A stretch of 64,000 nt of DNA, from the NCBI GenBank assembly GCA_964486045.1, contig CAZALK010000002.1, positions 192,001 to 256,000 of the forward strand. The letters run 5' to 3'. A model generated the notes under the pieces. It saw only the letters and a program-made list of their open reading frames with translations. It had not been told where the DNA came from and searched no databases. Positions 2,981-13,491 of the stretch are shown piece by piece (within the stretch, counting starts at the first letter, position 1; every line of letters starts with the position of its first letter). Both the position numbers and the translations under genes were made by a program. The DNA comes from an uncultured archaeon (GTDB lineage Archaea > Asgardarchaeota > Lokiarchaeia > Sigyniarchaeales > SOKP01).

Positions 2981-3934
2981 TTATATCCACTCATTTAAAA
3001 AATCCCGAATCGATTCAAATCGTTTTAATGAATCTAAAAATTCACCTTTTTTGAGTAAGTCCAGACCCTGAGAGTTAAATTTTTGAATATCAGCCTTTAA
3101 TTCTTCAAATTTAGCACCTTCCTTAAGTTGGATTAGTATTTGTGAATATTCTTCAACTTCCTTAGTTTTGTTTATCGATTCTGCTTGCGATATTAGACTT
3201 TCACAATTATTTATTGCTTCTTTAAATTTTTTCTGTTCCTTTTGAACTATAATTTTCTTTTTCAAATCTTCTATGTTTTCATTAACTTTATTGTAAGAAG
3301 TTTCCGCCTGATTAACATCACTTTTTATTTCCTCTAATTTATCTTTAAATTCTGTTAATCCTTTATCTTGAACTTGTTGCGTTAAATAGGTCAACCGTAT
3401 ATTTAACTCCCTAAATTGAAATTGTTTCTTTAATTCTTGACTTTCTTTTATTAGGTTTGTAATACCCTCGAGTATTTCTTTTTTTGCGCTTGCATCAAGG
3501 TATTTTCTTTCAATATTATCCCATTTTATTATAAATTTCTTGTGGTCTGATTGAAAAAGGAGTTTTTTCGCTTCTTTAATAACCTGGGCTACCTTATCAA
3601 AGTCTTCTACATTAAAAGCGTCATTATAATCAATTTCTAACTCTTTTAATTCAGATTCGAGTTCAGCACGAACTTTCGCTAATTTTTTTTCCTCACGTTT
3701 CTCGAGAAGTCCTTTAATTCGAGTAATTAATTGTTCTTGTTCTCTAATAAATGAAATAAGATTCTCTGACTTAGCTAGATCTATTATAATATACGCGAGA
3801 TCTAATGCTTCTTTTAGTTGTCCTTTCATAACTGATTGACCTTGAACAGCGGTTTTGTCATCAATTTCTGATATAACCCTTATTTTTCTTTTTTCATCTT
3901 TTTCTTCAATCTGTTTTGTTTTCTCTTCTGTCAA
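2981..3934 (-). CDS. Helical-repeat/coiled-coil protein, paralogous to the C-terminal part of the upstream gelsolin-domain protein
   Basis: E/K-rich TPR-like helices. Shares repeat motifs (ELKELE...KWxxxExKY; FQFxxI/L) with 3958-5580. Confidence 0.75.
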   Translation of the reverse strand: MTEEKTKQIEEKDEKRKIRVISEIDDKTAVQGQSVMKGQLKEALDLAYIIIDLAKSENLISFIREQEQLITRIKGLLEKREEKKLAKVRAELESELKELEIDYNDAFNVEDFDKVAQVIKEAKKLLFQSDHKKFIIKWDNIERKYLDASAKKEILEGITNLIKESQELKKQFQFRELNIRLTYLTQQVQDKGLTEFKDKLEEIKSDVNQAETSYNKVNENIEDLKKKIIVQKEQKKFKEAINNCESLISQAESINKTKEVEEYSQILIQLKEGAKFEELKADIQKFNSQGLDLLKKGEFLDSLKRFESIRDFLNEWI

Positions 3935-3957
3935 ATTGTTCCACTTTTGCTCAATTC

Positions 3958-5580
3958 TTATTTAGTATATCTTTGTATTTGATTAATTATCTGTTCATAA
4001 AAATCTAATGATTCCTTATAAGATCTATTATTTAACGAGTTTAACCCGCTTTTACTTAATTGTTCTATATTATCAATTAGATCCCGAGCAGAAATGTATT
4101 TCTTCTCAAAGGTTTCCCAGTTATTCTTGATTTCCTCATCAACAAGCTCAATTAATAGCATTTTTGATTTTCCTAAAATTTGTTCTAATTTTGCTAGATC
4201 CATGATCTTTAGTGAAGATACTAAATCCTTTTCTAATTGTCCAAGATCAGTTCTTAATTTTTTCTGTTTTTCTTCAAAGACTTGTCTCTCTTCAATTGAT
4301 TTTTCTGTTTGTTCTAATATAGTTGAATATTTTTCTAAGAGTTCGGATTTATTTATCGATTGAGCAATCTGAATTATTTTTTGGCAATCTCTTAACACAT
4401 CATCTATCTGATTAAATTTCTGGTTGTTATTGATTAGTTTTTCTAAATTTTCTATTTCTGCTAACTTTTTATTGTATTCAAGTTCTTCAGAGAATATTTC
4501 TGCTTTTAAATCTTCTAATTTTTTCTGATAATCGGGAATACTTATTTTTTTGACTTGTACTAAGAAATCATTTATTTCCTCTTCAATTGCACTAAATTGA
4601 AAATTTAACTTCATCTTTTCACTTTCTTTTATAAAAACTTTAATGCTTTCTACAAGTTCAGCTTTTTGTTTAGCGCTTTGAAGATCATCTTCATATTTAC
4701 TCCATTTCTTTTTGATTTCATCGTTAACAAGATTTATAAAAAGAGATTTTCCTCTTTCCATTATTTTAATTGAATTTTCAATCTCAAGATTCTTTAATGC
4801 TAAGAATAAATCATTCTCTAATTTAGTAAGTTCTTTAACCAATCGTGCTTGTTCTTTTTTCCAAACTTTTTTTTCATTTGAAATTAATTCTTTGGCTGAT
4901 TTTATTACAGATAAATCGTATATTTTACCATTTTTTTCCTCAAATTCTACTACAATTGTGTGTGCTTTTAAAAATTCCCCATCAGCAATTAATTTAGAAA
5001 ATTGTTTATCAATTTCAACTGCCTCACTGTCAATATCTTCGTTAATTTCTTTATCTGCACTTTTTGCTGTTAATTTTGTTATTAATGTTTTTTGCTCAGT
5101 TATCAATGCTTCATCATTAATTTTTTCAGCCAGTTTAATAATTTCTTCACAATTGTTAATCGCGTTGCTATACTTTTCTGAATTAACTAATTTTTCCAAC
5201 GTCTTCTTTAAATCTTCTATTTTTTTGAGTGTCGGAAGCATCACTTTTTCTTGATAATCAATTAATTTATAAAGCTCTTCCTTGTTAAGCTCCAGATTTT
5301 TAAAGAAGTCAAAAGGCTCTTCTCTCATTTCAAATGTGAAATTCCGTATAATGCGAAAATCAGGAAATTCCTCTTTCACTCTTACTCTGATGTTAGATAT
5401 ATGATTCTTTAATGCTTGAGTAGCATTACTACCTACCCAAACATACATAATTTTTTTGGTAGTAATATAAATAGCTAAAATGTTAACAATAGTGAAGACT
5501 TCTTTTATATGCGCATACGAAACTTCATCAAAAGTCCCATTGAAATTGAGTTTAAATATATTTATAGCATTTTGAGACAT
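3958..5580 (-). CDS. N-terminal gelsolin-like domain fused to long helical/coiled-coil repeats
   Basis: IMYVWVGSNAT...EMREEPFDFF matches the gelsolin-repeat pattern IYVWxGxxA...EPxxF. About 430 aa of helical repeats follow. Confidence 0.7.
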   Translation of the reverse strand: MSQNAINIFKLNFNGTFDEVSYAHIKEVFTIVNILAIYITTKKIMYVWVGSNATQALKNHISNIRVRVKEEFPDFRIIRNFTFEMREEPFDFFKNLELNKEELYKLIDYQEKVMLPTLKKIEDLKKTLEKLVNSEKYSNAINNCEEIIKLAEKINDEALITEQKTLITKLTAKSADKEINEDIDSEAVEIDKQFSKLIADGEFLKAHTIVVEFEEKNGKIYDLSVIKSAKELISNEKKVWKKEQARLVKELTKLENDLFLALKNLEIENSIKIMERGKSLFINLVNDEIKKKWSKYEDDLQSAKQKAELVESIKVFIKESEKMKLNFQFSAIEEEINDFLVQVKKISIPDYQKKLEDLKAEIFSEELEYNKKLAEIENLEKLINNNQKFNQIDDVLRDCQKIIQIAQSINKSELLEKYSTILEQTEKSIEERQVFEEKQKKLRTDLGQLEKDLVSSLKIMDLAKLEQILGKSKMLLIELVDEEIKNNWETFEKKYISARDLIDNIEQLSKSGLNSLNNRSYKESLDFYEQIINQIQRYTK

Positions 5581-6353: not shown

Positions 6354-7811
6354 TTAACCTAAATATCTCCTCCGATTTGCTGCCATTAAAACTTTTGATG
6401 ATAAGTCTTCAATCTTATTGAGTCTCAATGAATCTATTATATAATCTGTAATATTTTTATGTTCTTCATCCATCTCACAGTCAATTGATAATTCTTTTAG
6501 TTTTGATTCTATTACTTTAGGTATAAAGCGTTGGTCGGGGTTATAAAATTTAAGAGCATCCTTGAGGTCTTCTTCAAAATTTATATATTGGGTAAGAATA
6601 AAATCATAATCTCTTTGAGTTAAAGCATTTAATCCAAGTAATGCTGGTGGTAATCCCATGGAACACAAAGATGCCGTAAAACCAATTGCTCTTGGTAAAC
6701 ATTGGTCTCCCATTGAACGGCAATAACCAAATAGCCCAATATGAAGTTTTCTCTTCCTTCGTTTAGGTATAAACTTAGAAACTTTATTAATTAATGGTGC
6801 TAATTCTAGTACTTGTTTCCCATATTCTTCAGCATACTTTTCAACAATTTCTAAACATCTTTCTTCTTCCATAAAATGAGGATTCCTTCTTGGTGTTTCG
6901 TTTATTTTATCAATTGCTTTGGAGACCATATTCGGAGGATAGTCATACTTAAACGCAGATTGAAGGGTAAATGTTTGGACACTCGGATATTCTTTTAAGA
7001 CCCTTTCTACTGTGTCTGGTCGTAAATTACCTCTAAAAGGGGCTGATCCAACACCAATTATTGGATATAAATCTATACTTAATTCTTCGGATAGTTGATT
7101 AATTCTTTGGTGAGCAATTTTATTTACCACAACAGCAGAAAGTAGTCCATAATTTAACGCCGGATCGGATCTTGCAAAGAAGATTCGTTGGTATTCAAGA
7201 TTTTTATCACTAAGATAAGCTTTCAGTAGTAAATGAGAGAAAAGTATATGATGTTTATCTTCTACAAGAGGAATTACATTTATTTTATGTGGTTTAAATT
7301 GCCCCACCCATTCTGAGATTAAAATATCTCCATCCATTGTTGGATATTTTTGTTTTCCAATCACAAATTTATGATAGTAATTGTATATTCTATCAAGTCC
7401 TTGTTCTGAGGTGGTCATCGGTAATATAACTTCAAAAATAGGAGCAATATCATCATTAAAATATAAATTCGCAGCATCAAATGATCGAGGAATACTTTCT
7501 AGAGTTTCGATTAGCACTTTAGCTTCCGCTTTTTCTTCTTCAGGATTAGGTACTCTTATGGTTAAAAAAATATCTTTACCCAAACGAGTTTCTTTAAAAA
7601 AATCCGGATATTTTGTTAAAAGTTTTTTAACTACAAATCCATCAACCTCCTTACCTTCAGCATCCCACATTTGCTCATCACACCCAAGATGTGAATAAGC
7701 ATAAAAGGCTTCCTGGATTTCATCATCACCACCAAGATCGGAAGATTCCGCAAAAAAAGGTAAATGCACATTATCAGGATGCTGAGTACTCATACATCTA
7801 GGTATTTTCAA
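6354..7811 (-). CDS. ppcA: Archaeal-type phosphoenolpyruvate carboxylase
   Basis: IPRCMSTQHPDN, MWDAEGK, FEVILPMT, ARSDPALNYG, GVGSAPFRG, LPRAIGF. Confidence 0.95.
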   Translation of the reverse strand: MKIPRCMSTQHPDNVHLPFFAESSDLGGDDEIQEAFYAYSHLGCDEQMWDAEGKEVDGFVVKKLLTKYPDFFKETRLGKDIFLTIRVPNPEEEKAEAKVLIETLESIPRSFDAANLYFNDDIAPIFEVILPMTTSEQGLDRIYNYYHKFVIGKQKYPTMDGDILISEWVGQFKPHKINVIPLVEDKHHILFSHLLLKAYLSDKNLEYQRIFFARSDPALNYGLLSAVVVNKIAHQRINQLSEELSIDLYPIIGVGSAPFRGNLRPDTVERVLKEYPSVQTFTLQSAFKYDYPPNMVSKAIDKINETPRRNPHFMEEERCLEIVEKYAEEYGKQVLELAPLINKVSKFIPKRRKRKLHIGLFGYCRSMGDQCLPRAIGFTASLCSMGLPPALLGLNALTQRDYDFILTQYINFEEDLKDALKFYNPDQRFIPKVIESKLKELSIDCEMDEEHKNITDYIIDSLRLNKIEDLSSKVLMAANRRRYLG

Positions 7812-8031: not shown

Positions 8032-9132
8032 ATGAGTGAAGGAAAAGAACGAACATTTTTAGTGGGAATTTTTGGAGAAAATTTCGAACATAGAAAATTG
8101 TTAGGACAGGCTTTGGGAGCCCCAGGAACAAGTTCAGATATACAGTTCTATAATAGGTTAGATTCAAAATTAGGTTACGTCTTTACAGCATTAACTCCAA
8201 TTGACTATCCTGAAAAACTTAAACCATTTTTACAGACGTTAATACTGACTGATATCCATATTTTAATTATTGATGTAGATTTTGGTTTAAATTCCTCGGT
8301 AGGAGAGATATTAGTAGGAATGGATTTATTCCACAAGATGTCCAACACAAAATCATTAATTGTACTTTCTGGGATTACATCCAAAACAGAATGGAAGTTA
8401 AAAGATATTAAAAAAAAGATAGATTCTGTCTTAAATAATACGACACTTCAAGGAATTGAAGTTATTGAAATTAGACAGAAAGAAGAATATAACTCATTAA
8501 AAAAGAAAATTGTAGAGCTTGCTGCTGAAGCCCCTATAAATGGTTTAAAATCAGCACCCTACTCAAAAGTATTAATAGATCATGCGTTTTCAGTAAAAGG
8601 AATTGGTACGGTTATCTTAGGAATTGTTAGAAAAGGAACAATATATTCAAGCCAAATGCTGGATTTAACAGGAAATCATGGAGCAGCAAAAAAAATTATC
8701 ATTAGAAGCATCCAAAGGCATGATAGAACTTTTAAAGAAGCTCACGAAGGTGATAGAGTTGGGTTAGCATTAAAAGGCAACATTTCTACAGATGAGATTA
8801 GTAGGGACAATATAATTACATCTCAAGGTATTTTTAAAGGGGAGGAAGAAATAACAGCTAAAGTTTATATAAACCAATTCTATAAACCTAAAGGTGGAGT
8901 TATTATCCCTGGTGATTTAACAGAATATCATGGCATAGCCGAAATTAAAAGCACGCCCTTAAAGATAATTGAAGGGGAAAAATTAAACCCAGGAGATTCT
9001 GGAATAGTAAAATTGAGGTTTACTAAACCGTTATATCATGATGGAAGTGGGCTAAGTGGAATAATTTTTGATTTAAACCGTTTTCAAAACAAATTAAGAA
9101 TAATTGGACACTATAAACAATTATTAAATTAA
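8032..9132 (+). CDS. Archaeal SelB-like (aSelBL) EF-Tu-family protein with degenerate G domain
   Basis: GTSSDIQFYN, YPEK, IDHAFSVKGIGTVILG, IRSIQxHD, GDRVGLALKG. No GxxxxGK(S/T) P-loop or NKxD. Confidence 0.8.
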   Translation: MSEGKERTFLVGIFGENFEHRKLLGQALGAPGTSSDIQFYNRLDSKLGYVFTALTPIDYPEKLKPFLQTLILTDIHILIIDVDFGLNSSVGEILVGMDLFHKMSNTKSLIVLSGITSKTEWKLKDIKKKIDSVLNNTTLQGIEVIEIRQKEEYNSLKKKIVELAAEAPINGLKSAPYSKVLIDHAFSVKGIGTVILGIVRKGTIYSSQMLDLTGNHGAAKKIIIRSIQRHDRTFKEAHEGDRVGLALKGNISTDEISRDNIITSQGIFKGEEEITAKVYINQFYKPKGGVIIPGDLTEYHGIAEIKSTPLKIIEGEKLNPGDSGIVKLRFTKPLYHDGSGLSGIIFDLNRFQNKLRIIGHYKQLLN

Positions 9133-9546: not shown

Positions 9547-12231
9547 TTAATTTTTCACTTTTAGCATGTTTCTTAGAACAGTGTGCAAAATTCCCCCATT
9601 TTGATAATATTCAATATCTATAGGAGTGTCTAATCTTGCAATTACTTTAAATTTTAAATCCTCCCCATTGAGTCTTCTTGCAATTACATTTAATTCCGAT
9701 AAGGGTTCAATATCCTTGATTCCAAAGATACTAATGGTTTCTTCTCCTGTTAATTCTAGGCTATTTGCACTTTCACCATTTTTAAATTGAAGTGGTAAAA
9801 CCCCCATTCCAACTAGATTACTTCTATGAATTCTTTCAAATGATTCGGCAATTACTGCTTTTACTCCTAACAGTTGCGTACCTTTTGCGGCCCAATCACG
9901 TGAGCTCCCCATACCGTAATCTTTACCTGCAATAACAATTAAGGGAGTGTCAGAATTTATATACTTCATAGCTGCATCATAAATAGGCATTATTTCCTTT
10001 CTGGGATGATAAATTGTCCAACCTCCTTCTCTATTAACAAGAAGATTTTTAATTCGGATGTTACCAAATGTCCCACGCGTCATAACTTCATCATTTCCTC
10101 TTCTTGATCCAAATGAGTTGAAATCTTCAACATTTATTCCCTTTGATTTTAGATATTTTCCCGCAGGCATATCTACAGGGATTGCACCAGCGGGTGAAAT
10201 ATGATCTGTGGTGACACTCCCTCCCAAGAGTGCAATTACTCGCGCTGCTTTTATATCTGGAGACGATGGTCTTTCTAAAGGAAAATCTATAAAGAAGGGT
10301 GGTTCTTTTATATAGGTTGAATCTTCTTCCCATAGGTATACATCTTCTTTTGGAGGTTTTAGTTCATTCCATAAGTCCCAACCTTTAAAGATCTCACCAT
10401 ACTCTTTATTAAATAATTTAGCAGTGACAAATTTATCACTCAAATCTGTAATTTCACTTGAGTGTGGCCAAATATCTTTTAAATAAACAGGGTTTCCCCT
10501 CGGATCATTTCCTAATGGTTCATTTTCCATGTTTATTGCTACAGTACCTGCTAAAGCAAACGCTACAACTAAAGGTGGGGATGCAAGATAATTTATTCTT
10601 GTGTATGGACTAATTCTTCCTTCGAAGTTTCGATTTCCGCTTAGAACTGATGCTACTACCAAATTTTTATCCTGAATTTCATTAATTAATTCAGTTTTTA
10701 ATGGACCGCTATTTCCAATACAGGTTGTACAACCAAAACCTACTAAGTTGAAACCTAATTCTTCTAAAAAATGTAATAATCCAGCATCTTTTAAATAATC
10801 AATTACAACTCGGGATCCAGGAGCAAAACTAGTTTTAACAAAACTTTTAACTTTTAAGCCTTTTTCTAAGGCATTTCTTGCTAGAAGTGCAGCCCCGATC
10901 ATTACAGCTGGGTTCGACGTGTTAGTGCAAGAAGTAATAGCGGCAATGACAACTGAGCTATGACTTAAGTTATTCCCATCTGATATTTTTTCAAGTTCAT
11001 TACTCTTATTAAGTGTATTCTTCATATGCTCTGTAAAGTTTGTCTTCATCTTATTTGCTGGAATACGATCTTGAGGACGTGTTGGACCTGCTAAACTTGG
11101 TTCAATATTACTTAGGTTTATCTCTAAATTTTCACTAAAATTTGGTGGGGGAGCACTATCTGTATAAAACATTCCTACTCTCTTTGCATATTGCTCAACA
11201 AAATCAATATTATCTTTTTTTCTCCCACTATTTCTTAAATAATTCAAGGTTTCTTCTGTGATGGGAAAATATCCCATTGTTGCACCATATTCGGGAGACA
11301 TATTTGCAATGGTTGCTCGATCTGCAAGGCTTAATTTTTTTAGTCCTGAACCATAAAATTCGACAAATTTCCCAACTACACCAAATTTTCTAAGAATTTG
11401 AGTAATAGTTAATACAATATCTGTAGCGGTTATTCCTTCTTTGACATCCCCTATTAACTTAACCCCAACAACTTTAGGAACATTCATATATATGGGTTGC
11501 CCTAAAATGACCGCTTCGGCCTCTATCCCCCCGACACCCCAGCCAAAAACTGACAACCCATTTATCATCGTTGTATGGGAATCAGTTCCAACTAAAGTAT
11601 CTGGGTATCCGATTAGACCATTATTTTCTTCTTTTAAATGAATGACAGATGCTAAATATTCTAAGTTAACTTGATGACATATTCCTCTACTCGTAGGTAC
11701 AACCCTGAAATTTTTATAAACAGATTGTGCCCATTTAAGAAATTTATAGCGTTCATGATTACGTTCCATTTCCACTTTTTCATTCAAATCTCTCGCATCA
11801 TTTGATCCATAATAATCAACTTGAACTGAATGATCAATAACCAAGTCTACTGGTATTTTAGGATTTATATCTGAAGGATTTCCACCTGCCCTCTTTATGG
11901 CTGATCTCAGAGCAGCTAGATCTACAACTGAAGGAACTCCTGTAAAGTCTTGTAATAATACTCTTGATGGAATATAGGGTACCTCACTTATTAAATCACT
12001 TTTAGAGTCCCATTGACATACCATAAGTAAGTGATCCATCGTAACACGCTTACCATCTAGATTTCTTAAAAGATTTTCAAGTAATATTCTATGGGAATAT
12101 GGTAATTTGTTTGGATCACCTAATTTTAAATCCTTTAATTTTTGAATATTATAAATCAAAACATCTCCTACTTTGGATTTAATAGTATCCTTAACCTTTG
12201 ATTTAATTTCTTGCTCATCCATTATTCTCAC
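9547..12231 (-). CDS. acnA: Aconitate hydratase A (IRP/AcnA type)
   Basis: LLQDFTGVP, DHSVQVD, GICHQVNLE, GTDSHT, AITSCTNTSNP, GCTTCIGNSG, TTDHISPAG, GSSRDWAAKG. Start may be ATG 12222. Confidence 0.95.
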   Translation of the reverse strand: MRIMDEQEIKSKVKDTIKSKVGDVLIYNIQKLKDLKLGDPNKLPYSHRILLENLLRNLDGKRVTMDHLLMVCQWDSKSDLISEVPYIPSRVLLQDFTGVPSVVDLAALRSAIKRAGGNPSDINPKIPVDLVIDHSVQVDYYGSNDARDLNEKVEMERNHERYKFLKWAQSVYKNFRVVPTSRGICHQVNLEYLASVIHLKEENNGLIGYPDTLVGTDSHTTMINGLSVFGWGVGGIEAEAVILGQPIYMNVPKVVGVKLIGDVKEGITATDIVLTITQILRKFGVVGKFVEFYGSGLKKLSLADRATIANMSPEYGATMGYFPITEETLNYLRNSGRKKDNIDFVEQYAKRVGMFYTDSAPPPNFSENLEINLSNIEPSLAGPTRPQDRIPANKMKTNFTEHMKNTLNKSNELEKISDGNNLSHSSVVIAAITSCTNTSNPAVMIGAALLARNALEKGLKVKSFVKTSFAPGSRVVIDYLKDAGLLHFLEELGFNLVGFGCTTCIGNSGPLKTELINEIQDKNLVVASVLSGNRNFEGRISPYTRINYLASPPLVVAFALAGTVAINMENEPLGNDPRGNPVYLKDIWPHSSEITDLSDKFVTAKLFNKEYGEIFKGWDLWNELKPPKEDVYLWEEDSTYIKEPPFFIDFPLERPSSPDIKAARVIALLGGSVTTDHISPAGAIPVDMPAGKYLKSKGINVEDFNSFGSRRGNDEVMTRGTFGNIRIKNLLVNREGGWTIYHPRKEIMPIYDAAMKYINSDTPLIVIAGKDYGMGSSRDWAAKGTQLLGVKAVIAESFERIHRSNLVGMGVLPLQFKNGESANSLELTGEETISIFGIKDIEPLSELNVIARRLNGEDLKFKVIARLDTPIDIEYYQNGGILHTVLRNMLKVKN

Positions 12232-12246
12232 AATGTAATCTAAATA

Positions 12247-13491
12247 CTATCTTTTATCAATGTTTTCATACTTCTTATCTAATTCACCCACGTATCTAAG
12301 GCGTGGCCTTATGAGTTTATTATCCGAAAGTTGCTCGAGGGCATGAGCAACCCAGCCAGCACTGCGAGAAGCAGCAAATAATGGGGTAAAAGATGCTGTA
12401 GGTATACCTAATGCATGTAATGCTCCAGCAGAATATAAGTCTACATTAGGATAAATATTTTTGGTTTTTATCATAAATTCGGTAAGGGTTTCAGTCATCT
12501 CATAAATATTATCAATTTCCCCTTTATGAGTTTCATGCTCTGGATCAGGAATCTTTTCTATAATATCAGGATCACTCCATAAATTTTTAGATATTTCGCG
12601 CAATATTCTTGCTCTGGGATCCCATGTTTTATAAACTCGATGACCAAATCCCATGATTCTTTCCTTCTTCTCAAGCTTGTTTTTAGCCCAAGGTATAACT
12701 TTATCCTTTTTCTTTATTTCTCCTAACATAAGATTTATTACTCTTTCATTAGCACCACCATGGAGTGGCCCTCGAAGGGTACCGATAGCACTGGTGATTC
12801 CGCTATATATGTCTGATAATGTAGAAACGGTAACTCGACAAGAAAAAGTACTACTATTTATTGAGTGATCCATATGACAGATTAAAATCTTATCAAAATA
12901 TTCTTCAAATTCCTTGTTCGGGATTTTTCCTGTCATCATATAATAGTAATTACAAGAGTGTGAAAGATCTTCAGAGGGTTCAATTAAAGGTAAATTGCCT
13001 TGAATTCTATGTGAGAATGCTAAAACCGTAGGGATTTTTGCTATAATTCTTATTCCTTTTCTTATATTGGCTTCTTTAGAGAAATCGTAATCATCTGGAT
13101 CATATAGAGACAAAGCAGAAATTGATGTTCTTAATAATTCTATCCTTGTTGTATTTCTAGGAAAACTCTTTAATATTGTAACAATATTGTCTGGAAGTTT
13201 TCGCTCTTTAATTAATACATCTGTGAATGTCTTAAATTCTGATTTTGTCGGAAGTTTTCCATAGATTAATAAATAGGCAACTTCTTCAAAGGATGAATGT
13301 TCGACTAAATCTTTTAAAGGAAAACCTCGATAATAAAGTTTTCCATTCATACCATCTATGTATGTTATAAAGCTTTCATCTACATATATCCCTACTAAAC
13401 CTTTATAAGTTTTTGAACTATCAAGATCGCATAATTTTGCGTCTCCACCCGAATCATAATCATCTTTAATAAAACGCTTATCTCCTTTCAT
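12247..13491 (-). CDS. gltA: Citrate synthase (2-methylcitrate synthase not excluded)
   Basis: GKLYYRG, GPLHGGAN, MGFGHRVYK, DPRA, YPNVD. Lies 15 nt upstream of acnA on the same strand. Confidence 0.9.
   Translation of the reverse strand: MKGDKRFIKDDYDSGGDAKLCDLDSSKTYKGLVGIYVDESFITYIDGMNGKLYYRGFPLKDLVEHSSFEEVAYLLIYGKLPTKSEFKTFTDVLIKERKLPDNIVTILKSFPRNTTRIELLRTSISALSLYDPDDYDFSKEANIRKGIRIIAKIPTVLAFSHRIQGNLPLIEPSEDLSHSCNYYYMMTGKIPNKEFEEYFDKILICHMDHSINSSTFSCRVTVSTLSDIYSGITSAIGTLRGPLHGGANERVINLMLGEIKKKDKVIPWAKNKLEKKERIMGFGHRVYKTWDPRARILREISKNLWSDPDIIEKIPDPEHETHKGEIDNIYEMTETLTEFMIKTKNIYPNVDLYSAGALHALGIPTASFTPLFAASRSAGWVAHALEQLSDNKLIRPRLRYVGELDKKYENIDKR

Follow-up and report, generated by a model that had tools for sequence, protein, structure and literature searches.

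The two adjacent genes described here are a conserved, duplicated and reduced form of a protein family specific to the Promethearchaeales, and their products probably pair into a tether with a single gelsolin head. The genes lie on the minus strand of the analysed stretch of 64,000 nucleotides (the window). Gene A (positions 3958-5580, 540 aa, ATG start) encodes a gelsolin head, a helical-bundle rod and a terminal hairpin. Gene B (2981-3934, 317 aa, TTG start) encodes a headless paralogue of A. We tentatively favour, at somewhat less than even chances, the reading that the two proteins heterodimerise into an actin tether that has a single head and does not depend on calcium, and not into a cross-linker.

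The stop codon of A is separated from the TTG start of B by a 23-nt spacer (3935-3957, minus strand), which is consistent with co-transcription, and the two genes are in different reading frames. An initial annotation of the window had reported these coordinates, the gap and a set of motifs, all of which are present, and had called B a headless paralogue carrying the same repeat. The paralogy is confirmed by a BLAST match between A and B (E 8e-16, z about 13). B is colinear with residues 101-540 of A minus residues 174-231 and 438-500, that is, minus two segments of the size of one repeat unit. B is a duplicate of the rod of A and not its continuation, and the possibility of a frameshift or a split gene was rejected. 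A 735-aa homologue considered as an A-B fusion turned out to be a repeat expansion. Gene A has 123 homologues, of which the named ones are all Asgard or unassigned; the named ones belong to Lokiarchaeota/Promethearchaeota and include Lokiarch_48210, the orthologue in GC14_75, which is not named in the literature searched. Both proteins are soluble by hydropathy, and Pfam searches with the single sequences of A and B gave nothing above the cut-off.

Flanking genes resemble, as we read them from the sequence, central-carbon enzymes: the regions 792-2729, 6354-7811 and 9547-13491 presumably contain two aconitase-family genes, a likely archaeal PEP carboxylase and a citrate synthase, all apparently unrelated to the pair. 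The 366-aa product of 8032-9132 has what we take, by appearance, to be an EF-Tu/SelB-type fold without a recognisable P-loop. Since the genes flanking A and B differ between genera, the unit is the two genes. No terminator-like site was found in the spacer (a weak test for archaea), and a promoter scan was at chance level (20 found versus 17.2 expected).

Synteny across Lokiarchaeia, which had been proposed as a check on the pair, is clearly seen. In each of the 44 genomes tallied (two genera, leaving out pairs cut by contig ends), B is the next gene after A and has the same orientation, and it follows A in six further genera. Both genes are absent from 15 of the 35 genomes of the window's own genus that were searched, most over 90% complete; as adjacent genes can be lost together by a single deletion, this co-absence says little. 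An 86-codon frame elsewhere (G072:C180:11723-11971), in which the first 31 residues of the head stand beside the end of B, is apparently a deletion remnant of the whole pair. In a quick tree of rods from several genera, the A-type and B-type rods fall into largely separate groups (SH-aLRT 95 and 84), with one A inside the B group and with both groups nested among single-gene forms. The tree is consistent with one old tandem duplication, and the separation of the two groups across genera suggests that both genes have been kept, in order, for a long time. Another genome has undergone an independent tandem duplication, both copies of which retain the head.

The head of A (residues 1-100, positions 5281-5580, minus strand) is a true but divergent gelsolin fold, as had been proposed from the sequence. 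It is the most conserved part of A, with a column conservation of 0.78-0.90 versus about 0.52-0.78 in the rod. A deep profile made from 80 relatives matches ProGel (PDB 7c2f, E 4.6e-7), villin (1e-6) and adseverin (3e-5), as well as the Loki 2DGel; a shallow head profile reaches ProGel in the PDB only at E 0.16, so that the deep profile is needed. Foldseek with the model of the head (pLDDT 90.7) gives 92 matches at E <= 0.001, and the best 50 of these 92 are all of the gelsolin family. The best structural match is again ProGel (Z 12.1, rmsd 2.0 Å, 88 of 88 residues), while the gelsolin-like domain of Sec23/24 is found at Z 6-7 (7.1) and the cofilins at Z 5-6. The W-x-G and G-x-E-P-x-x-F signatures are both present, with W48 in 80, G50 in 76, E88 in 78 and F92 in 75 of the 80 relatives.

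The ligands of Type II calcium are an Asp before W-x-G and a Glu at the start of the long helix. Their positions in the head, which we assigned by alignment to the 2DGel of this genome, presumably are 39 and 57. Both ligands are absent: the Asp of the DWG motif is replaced by Ile39 in A and is found in only 4/80 relatives, and position 57 is Leu in A and Leu, Val, Ile or Met in 80/80. With both ligands missing, calcium control of A is unlikely. The long helix (residues 55-71, positions 5368-5418, minus strand, as modelled) corresponds to the helix that contacts actin in known gelsolins. Here A has Asn59, His60 and Asn63 where ProGel and most gelsolins of this genome have an aromatic/hydrophobic pair and an Arg; position 60 is His, Tyr or Phe in 60/80 relatives, and 43/80 have a proline in the helix at position 62. 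The head also has basic residues that are invariant among close orthologues, which, together with its being the most conserved part of A, suggests that it binds something. A has one gelsolin domain only, no second actin-binding motif was found in it, and an LKKT-type motif at WH2 spacing after the head is not conserved.

The head represents its own Promethearchaeales subfamily. In a tree of heads, a 99/100 branch separates 23 rod heads from 12 other Asgard gelsolins, of which 11 are gelsolin-fold proteins encoded in this genome and one is an outsider; the bootstrap is not fully settled. A search of 301 Asgard genomes gave no match to the subfamily outside the Promethearchaeales at E 1e-15. A sister branch of the subfamily (L044:7421-10024, L047:7029-8915 and L048:5374-6345), which includes UYP46565.1 of L. 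ossiferum, has long charged low-complexity repeats and a different C-terminal domain. The genome of the window encodes actins (two at E below 1e-120) and at least 11 further gelsolin-fold genes with varied tails, on contigs C18, C17, C16, C8, C6, C1, C3, C11, C10 and C13, several of which fall under the Pfam cut-off.

ProGel is the best match of the head in both sequence and structure, and both are devoid of calcium sites. ProGel, however, consists of a 94-aa domain alone, which has the DWG Asp and, on the long helix, a hydrophobic Leu-Met pair; the head of A lacks the Asp and its pair is Asn-His. Calcium-regulated gelsolins have at least two gelsolin domains joined by a WH2-like motif and A has one domain; A is not a calcium-regulated gelsolin, either of the 2DGel or of the eukaryotic type. 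One gelsolin domain with a predicted helical extension is also found in Thorarchaeota 1DGelX (KXH72031.1; PMC7444086) and in L. ossiferum B35_GelX (UYP44381.1). The calcium independence predicted for A has been measured for Thor 1DGelX (Akil et al. 2020, PMC7444086). Asgard 1DGelX is characterised by binding, nucleation and severing of actin in the absence of calcium. The tail of A, in contrast, is a rod of bundle repeats with a headless partner gene, and no such partner is described for 1DGelX. The head is not a 1DGelX orthologue: in L. ossiferum it is UYP44381.1 that groups with Thor GelX, and neither of the two rod-head members of that species. For the Thor protein itself and its domain X, the indications that they are not orthologous and not homologous, respectively, to A come from the tree of heads, the search of the 301 genomes and the published L. 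ossiferum orthologue, and are indirect.

Both cultured Lokiarchaeia carry members of the family (UYP46866.1 and UYP46565.1 in L. ossiferum, QEE15340.1 in MK-D1), so that its role is directly testable. Five gelsolins are named as enriched in a Lokiactin co-immunoprecipitation from L. ossiferum (PMC13716822; table in bioRxiv 10.1101/2025.11.30.690169), and the rod-head subfamily is not represented among them. We located UYP46866.1 and UYP46565.1 in this table through an identifier offset, and the masses confirm the assignment (102.96 versus 102.9 kDa and 98.45 versus 98.39). In the available part of the table both proteins are expressed. UYP46565.1, quantified in 3/3 versus 0/3, is enriched at log2 1.32 (p 0.0033, adjusted 0.023) and passes the authors' threshold; the five recognised gelsolins are at log2 2.1-4.0. 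At least 78 proteins in that part of the table have log2 above 1 and raw p below 0.05, so that this enrichment is modest and possibly indirect. UYP46565.1 belongs to the sister branch, with a low-complexity tail and without the terminal hairpin. In UniRef it is annotated as 'ubiquitinyl hydrolase 1', and the authors did not name it a gelsolin: Pfam does not detect the subfamily, which left a member that passes their threshold out of the gelsolin count. UYP46866.1, the closest to A in architecture, has no significant enrichment in the same part of the table (log2 0.78, p 0.34). For the subfamily as a regulator of actin, the co-immunoprecipitation data are thus mixed.

Behind the head, A has a rod (residues 115-499, positions 4084-5238, minus strand) of about six three-helix units of ~63 aa each. 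Its fold is suggested by the model of B (pLDDT 92, pTM 0.61), in which long helices (about 35-49 residues) alternate with short ones (16-18) at a period of about 63. The two helical repeat copies noticed in A by the initial annotation are real (z = 12.8 against residue shuffles and 7.8 against shuffles of 7-residue blocks), and these shuffle tests reject a chance likeness of K/E-rich helices. The copies are, however, only units 3 and 6 (about 4669-4848 and 4084-4260) of a tail that comprises about six units and a hairpin. Natural variants of A differ in length by -195, -123 and +195 residues, i.e. by whole units. Both chains end in a two-helix hairpin that has no third helix, which is TPR-like in A (3961-4083, minus strand) and spans residues 276-317 in B (2984-3109, minus strand; model helices 257-295 and 299-316). 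This hairpin is common to B and nearly all members of the family, from 301 to 1362 aa, and is a candidate for the element through which A and B pair. The most conserved part of B is its first three-helix unit (residues 14-76, positions 3707-3895, minus strand), which might be a binding surface that replaces the head.

The model of B gives no Foldseek match at E <= 0.001, no Atlas match and otherwise generic bundle matches, which does not show that the fold is new. A single unit of B superposes on the MIT domain of archaeal Vps4 (2w2u) with an rmsd of 1.2 Å over 63 residues (Z 9.5), on the tandem MIT of calpain-7 at Z 10.2, and on several MIT domains with rmsds of 1.2-1.7 Å over about 60 residues, all at Z values under about 13 that are generic for helical bundles. 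The units might then be receptors for ESCRT-III tails, and the pair would link actin to ESCRT-III. This is extremely improbable: designed bundles and TPR proteins score alike, the profile of the unit matches TPR proteins and no MIT among the 60 matches listed, and no ESCRT gene was recognised beside any locus read. One distant B matches KATNA1_MIT at E 0.021, under the cut-off. The first two helices of the unit resemble TPR in sequence, but the units chain end to end and do not form a TPR solenoid (whole-chain TM 0.2).

The layout of an actin-type head on a rod of three-helix bundles joined head to tail, with two paralogous chains, can be compared to that of spectrin, alpha-actinin and EzrA, although by analogy only. 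The spectrin repeat is about 106 aa long and the spectrin head is a CH domain, as against a ~63-aa unit with a TPR-like hairpin and a gelsolin head; the chain lengths of A and B are unmatched, no sequence link to spectrin was found and Pfam gives no spectrin match for A or B. A is not a spectrin-repeat protein.

The initial annotation had proposed a heteromeric scaffold or filament cross-linker. Its heteromeric part is in agreement with a complex prediction for A and B, which scores 0.46 versus 0.00 for the best of three controls, the controls being unrelated proteins and not paralogous rods. At least 96% of contacts agree between runs, and the partner pLDDT is at least 77. The mark used is reached by 58 of 80 solved complexes and 2 of 110 mismatches, and among those reaching it only 7 solved complexes, together with both mismatches, score 0.60 or under. 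A score of 0.46 lies in this range, where passes are often wrong, and the prediction is therefore weak support for a heteromer.

It might then be that A and B form no stable complex. A alone or as a homodimer would be a 1DGelX-like regulator, and B, adjacent by co-transcription, would be a rod that acts independently or a partner that competes and inhibits. In favour of this alternative, a single gene suffices in many relatives and tandem duplicates remain neighbours by default; nevertheless, the largely separate and long-kept groups of A and B rods in several genera and the conserved surfaces that B has of its own make it very doubtful.

The cross-linker part of the proposal is not favoured. 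Throughout the genomes of the synteny tally the length of A ranges from about 345 to 740 aa, with B nearly constant at around 330 aa. Such a twofold variation at constant B argues against a side-by-side registration of the chains and favours an end-to-end contact, and an A:B dimer would have one head. For A and B to bundle or cross-link filaments, (A:B)n or A:A assemblies with two or more heads would be required. Single-gene relatives would have two heads if homodimeric, the tandem pair of one genome keeps the head in both copies (sisters too), the rod is laid out like a spectrin-like spacer, and ProGel bundles actin at high concentration (PMC7444086). Against the single head of the dimer, the varying length of A, and the finding of neither a second actin-binding motif nor a conserved WH2-type motif, a cross-linker is quite improbable, and the one-headed tether remains the preferred reading.

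The relatives of the pair are instructive as to what such a tether might hold. The sister family, to which the cultured L. ossiferum and MK-D1 belong, usually has one gene and no pair, and its long members have a conserved beta module of ~230 aa before the hairpin. This module resembles tandem DUF11 Ig-like domains, with DUF11 above the cut-off in two members. It also matches the AP/COPI mu-homology family PF00928 at E 0.007-0.013, under the cut-off, and has no match in the PDB; an identity as a mu-homology domain is not established. The beta module occurs across many Asgard families, joined to other heads, and is absent from A, B and all of their own genus searched. Relatives that branch off earlier have a single gene, which includes an additional double DUF11-like module and often directly precedes a gene for a longin-TPR-longin protein. 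The pair of the window has lost both the beta module and the adjoining longin-TPR-longin gene. A tree of the beta module does not resolve a single origin of all headless copies.

In 8 genomes from 6 genera and 2 families, the next gene after the head gene or the pair encodes a longin-TPR-longin protein of ~680 aa. In one genus (g4), B is followed in 26/26 genomes by a longin that stands alone and is homologous to the C-terminal longin of that protein. The longin profile matches MON1 (E 0.001) and TRAPP Bet5 (E 0.004). By eye, the longin-TPR-longin protein begins with a uDENN-like domain, for which profiles gave no support. In L. ossiferum the gene of this protein is followed by one for an Arf-like GTPase. 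In the genome of the window the longin homologue is on another contig, and in the window's genus it is unlinked to the pair and is present also in genomes that lack the pair. As longins adjoin the relatives and are unlinked here, the link is ancestral in gene order and has been broken in the lineage of the window. The neighbourhoods of the relatives hint at a link to regulators of small GTPases.

These neighbourhoods would also fit a head that no longer binds actin. The family would then be the scaffold of a longin/TPR/small-GTPase complex that uses the gelsolin fold as a protein- or lipid-binding module, as Sec23/24 do, and the pair would be a reduced remnant that still heterodimerises. Besides the longin and Arf-like genes, the altered long helix, the lack of enrichment of UYP46866.1 with actin and the occurrence of the DUF11-like module with other heads, again beside a longin-TPR gene, agree with this. 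Sec23/Sec24 do resemble A and B in having a gelsolin fold and a paralogous heterodimer and, possibly, in working with a small GTPase; their trunk, zinc finger and beta-barrel are absent from A. Against the scaffold reading, the head is closer in fold to ProGel. Position 91, which presumably matches the arginine finger of Sec23, is not Arg but Asp or Glu in 73/80 relatives. Moreover, one subfamily member is enriched with actin, and longins and GTPases are abundant in these genomes. A scaffold unrelated to actin is thus somewhat doubtful.

The one-headed tether can be described as follows. The tandem-duplicated A and B would assemble into a heterodimeric rod, most likely by contacts between their conserved C-terminal hairpins; the complex prediction gave no interface. 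The three-helix bundles of the rod would be a spacer of variable length. The single gelsolin head of A would bind Lokiactin weakly and without calcium control, as ProGel does, and the conserved first bundle of B would present a different binding surface. The dimer might thus link actin to another protein, plausibly a longin/small-GTPase module, and would be neither a severing protein nor a cross-linker. More speculatively, and on balance unlikely, the family would supply the subunit that faces actin in a so far unrecognised Asgard adaptor assembly, made up of the gelsolin rod, the DUF11-like module, the longin-TPR-longin protein and a small GTPase. Such an assembly would couple Lokiactin to membrane shaping or to signalling by GTPases, and in one lineage duplication and head loss would have turned a homodimer into an asymmetric heterodimer. 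If so, this change would parallel the way in which coat and spectrin subunits diversified in eukaryotes.

On current understanding, small gelsolins and profilins are the main regulators of Asgard actin, and the literature searched contains no structural linker of the spectrin or adaptor type for it. A gelsolin whose rod varies in length and which has a partner of its own would fill this role. Being patchy and confined to one order, the pair is an accessory module and not the ancestor of a eukaryotic protein. No description of the headless partner, the rod or the longin link was found in the literature searched, itself incomplete; the pair is apparently undescribed so far and a lineage-restricted accessory variant of a known architecture.

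Several other arrangements were observed among the relatives. A family of 520-620 aa proteins, mostly single-copy (L063-L077), has tandem DUF11-like domains with SNAP/TPR-like or other heads (for example L065:7523-9226, L066:6931-8703 and L063:7007-8566). It is present in 26/28, 20/21, 11/11 and 9/11 genomes of other Asgard families, and in one genus a longin-like-TPR gene lies immediately downstream of it. Three closed genomes of the sister family, those of L. ossiferum and MK-D1 among them, have a second beta-module gene, which is headless and forms a pair with a TPR-longin gene (L078:6201-9361, L079:6319-9477 and L080:6940-10006). Just upstream of a pair and two longin-TPR-longin genes, all on one strand, L037:2967-5270 encodes a 767-aa acidic protein of Ig-like repeats with a weak adaptor-mu match (E 0.007). 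Finally, in the 1088-aa product of L081:5371-8637 the rod, beta module and hairpin are joined to zinc-finger domains and an N-terminus that looks vWA-like by eye; as the same rod here carries another N-terminus, the head appears to be exchangeable.
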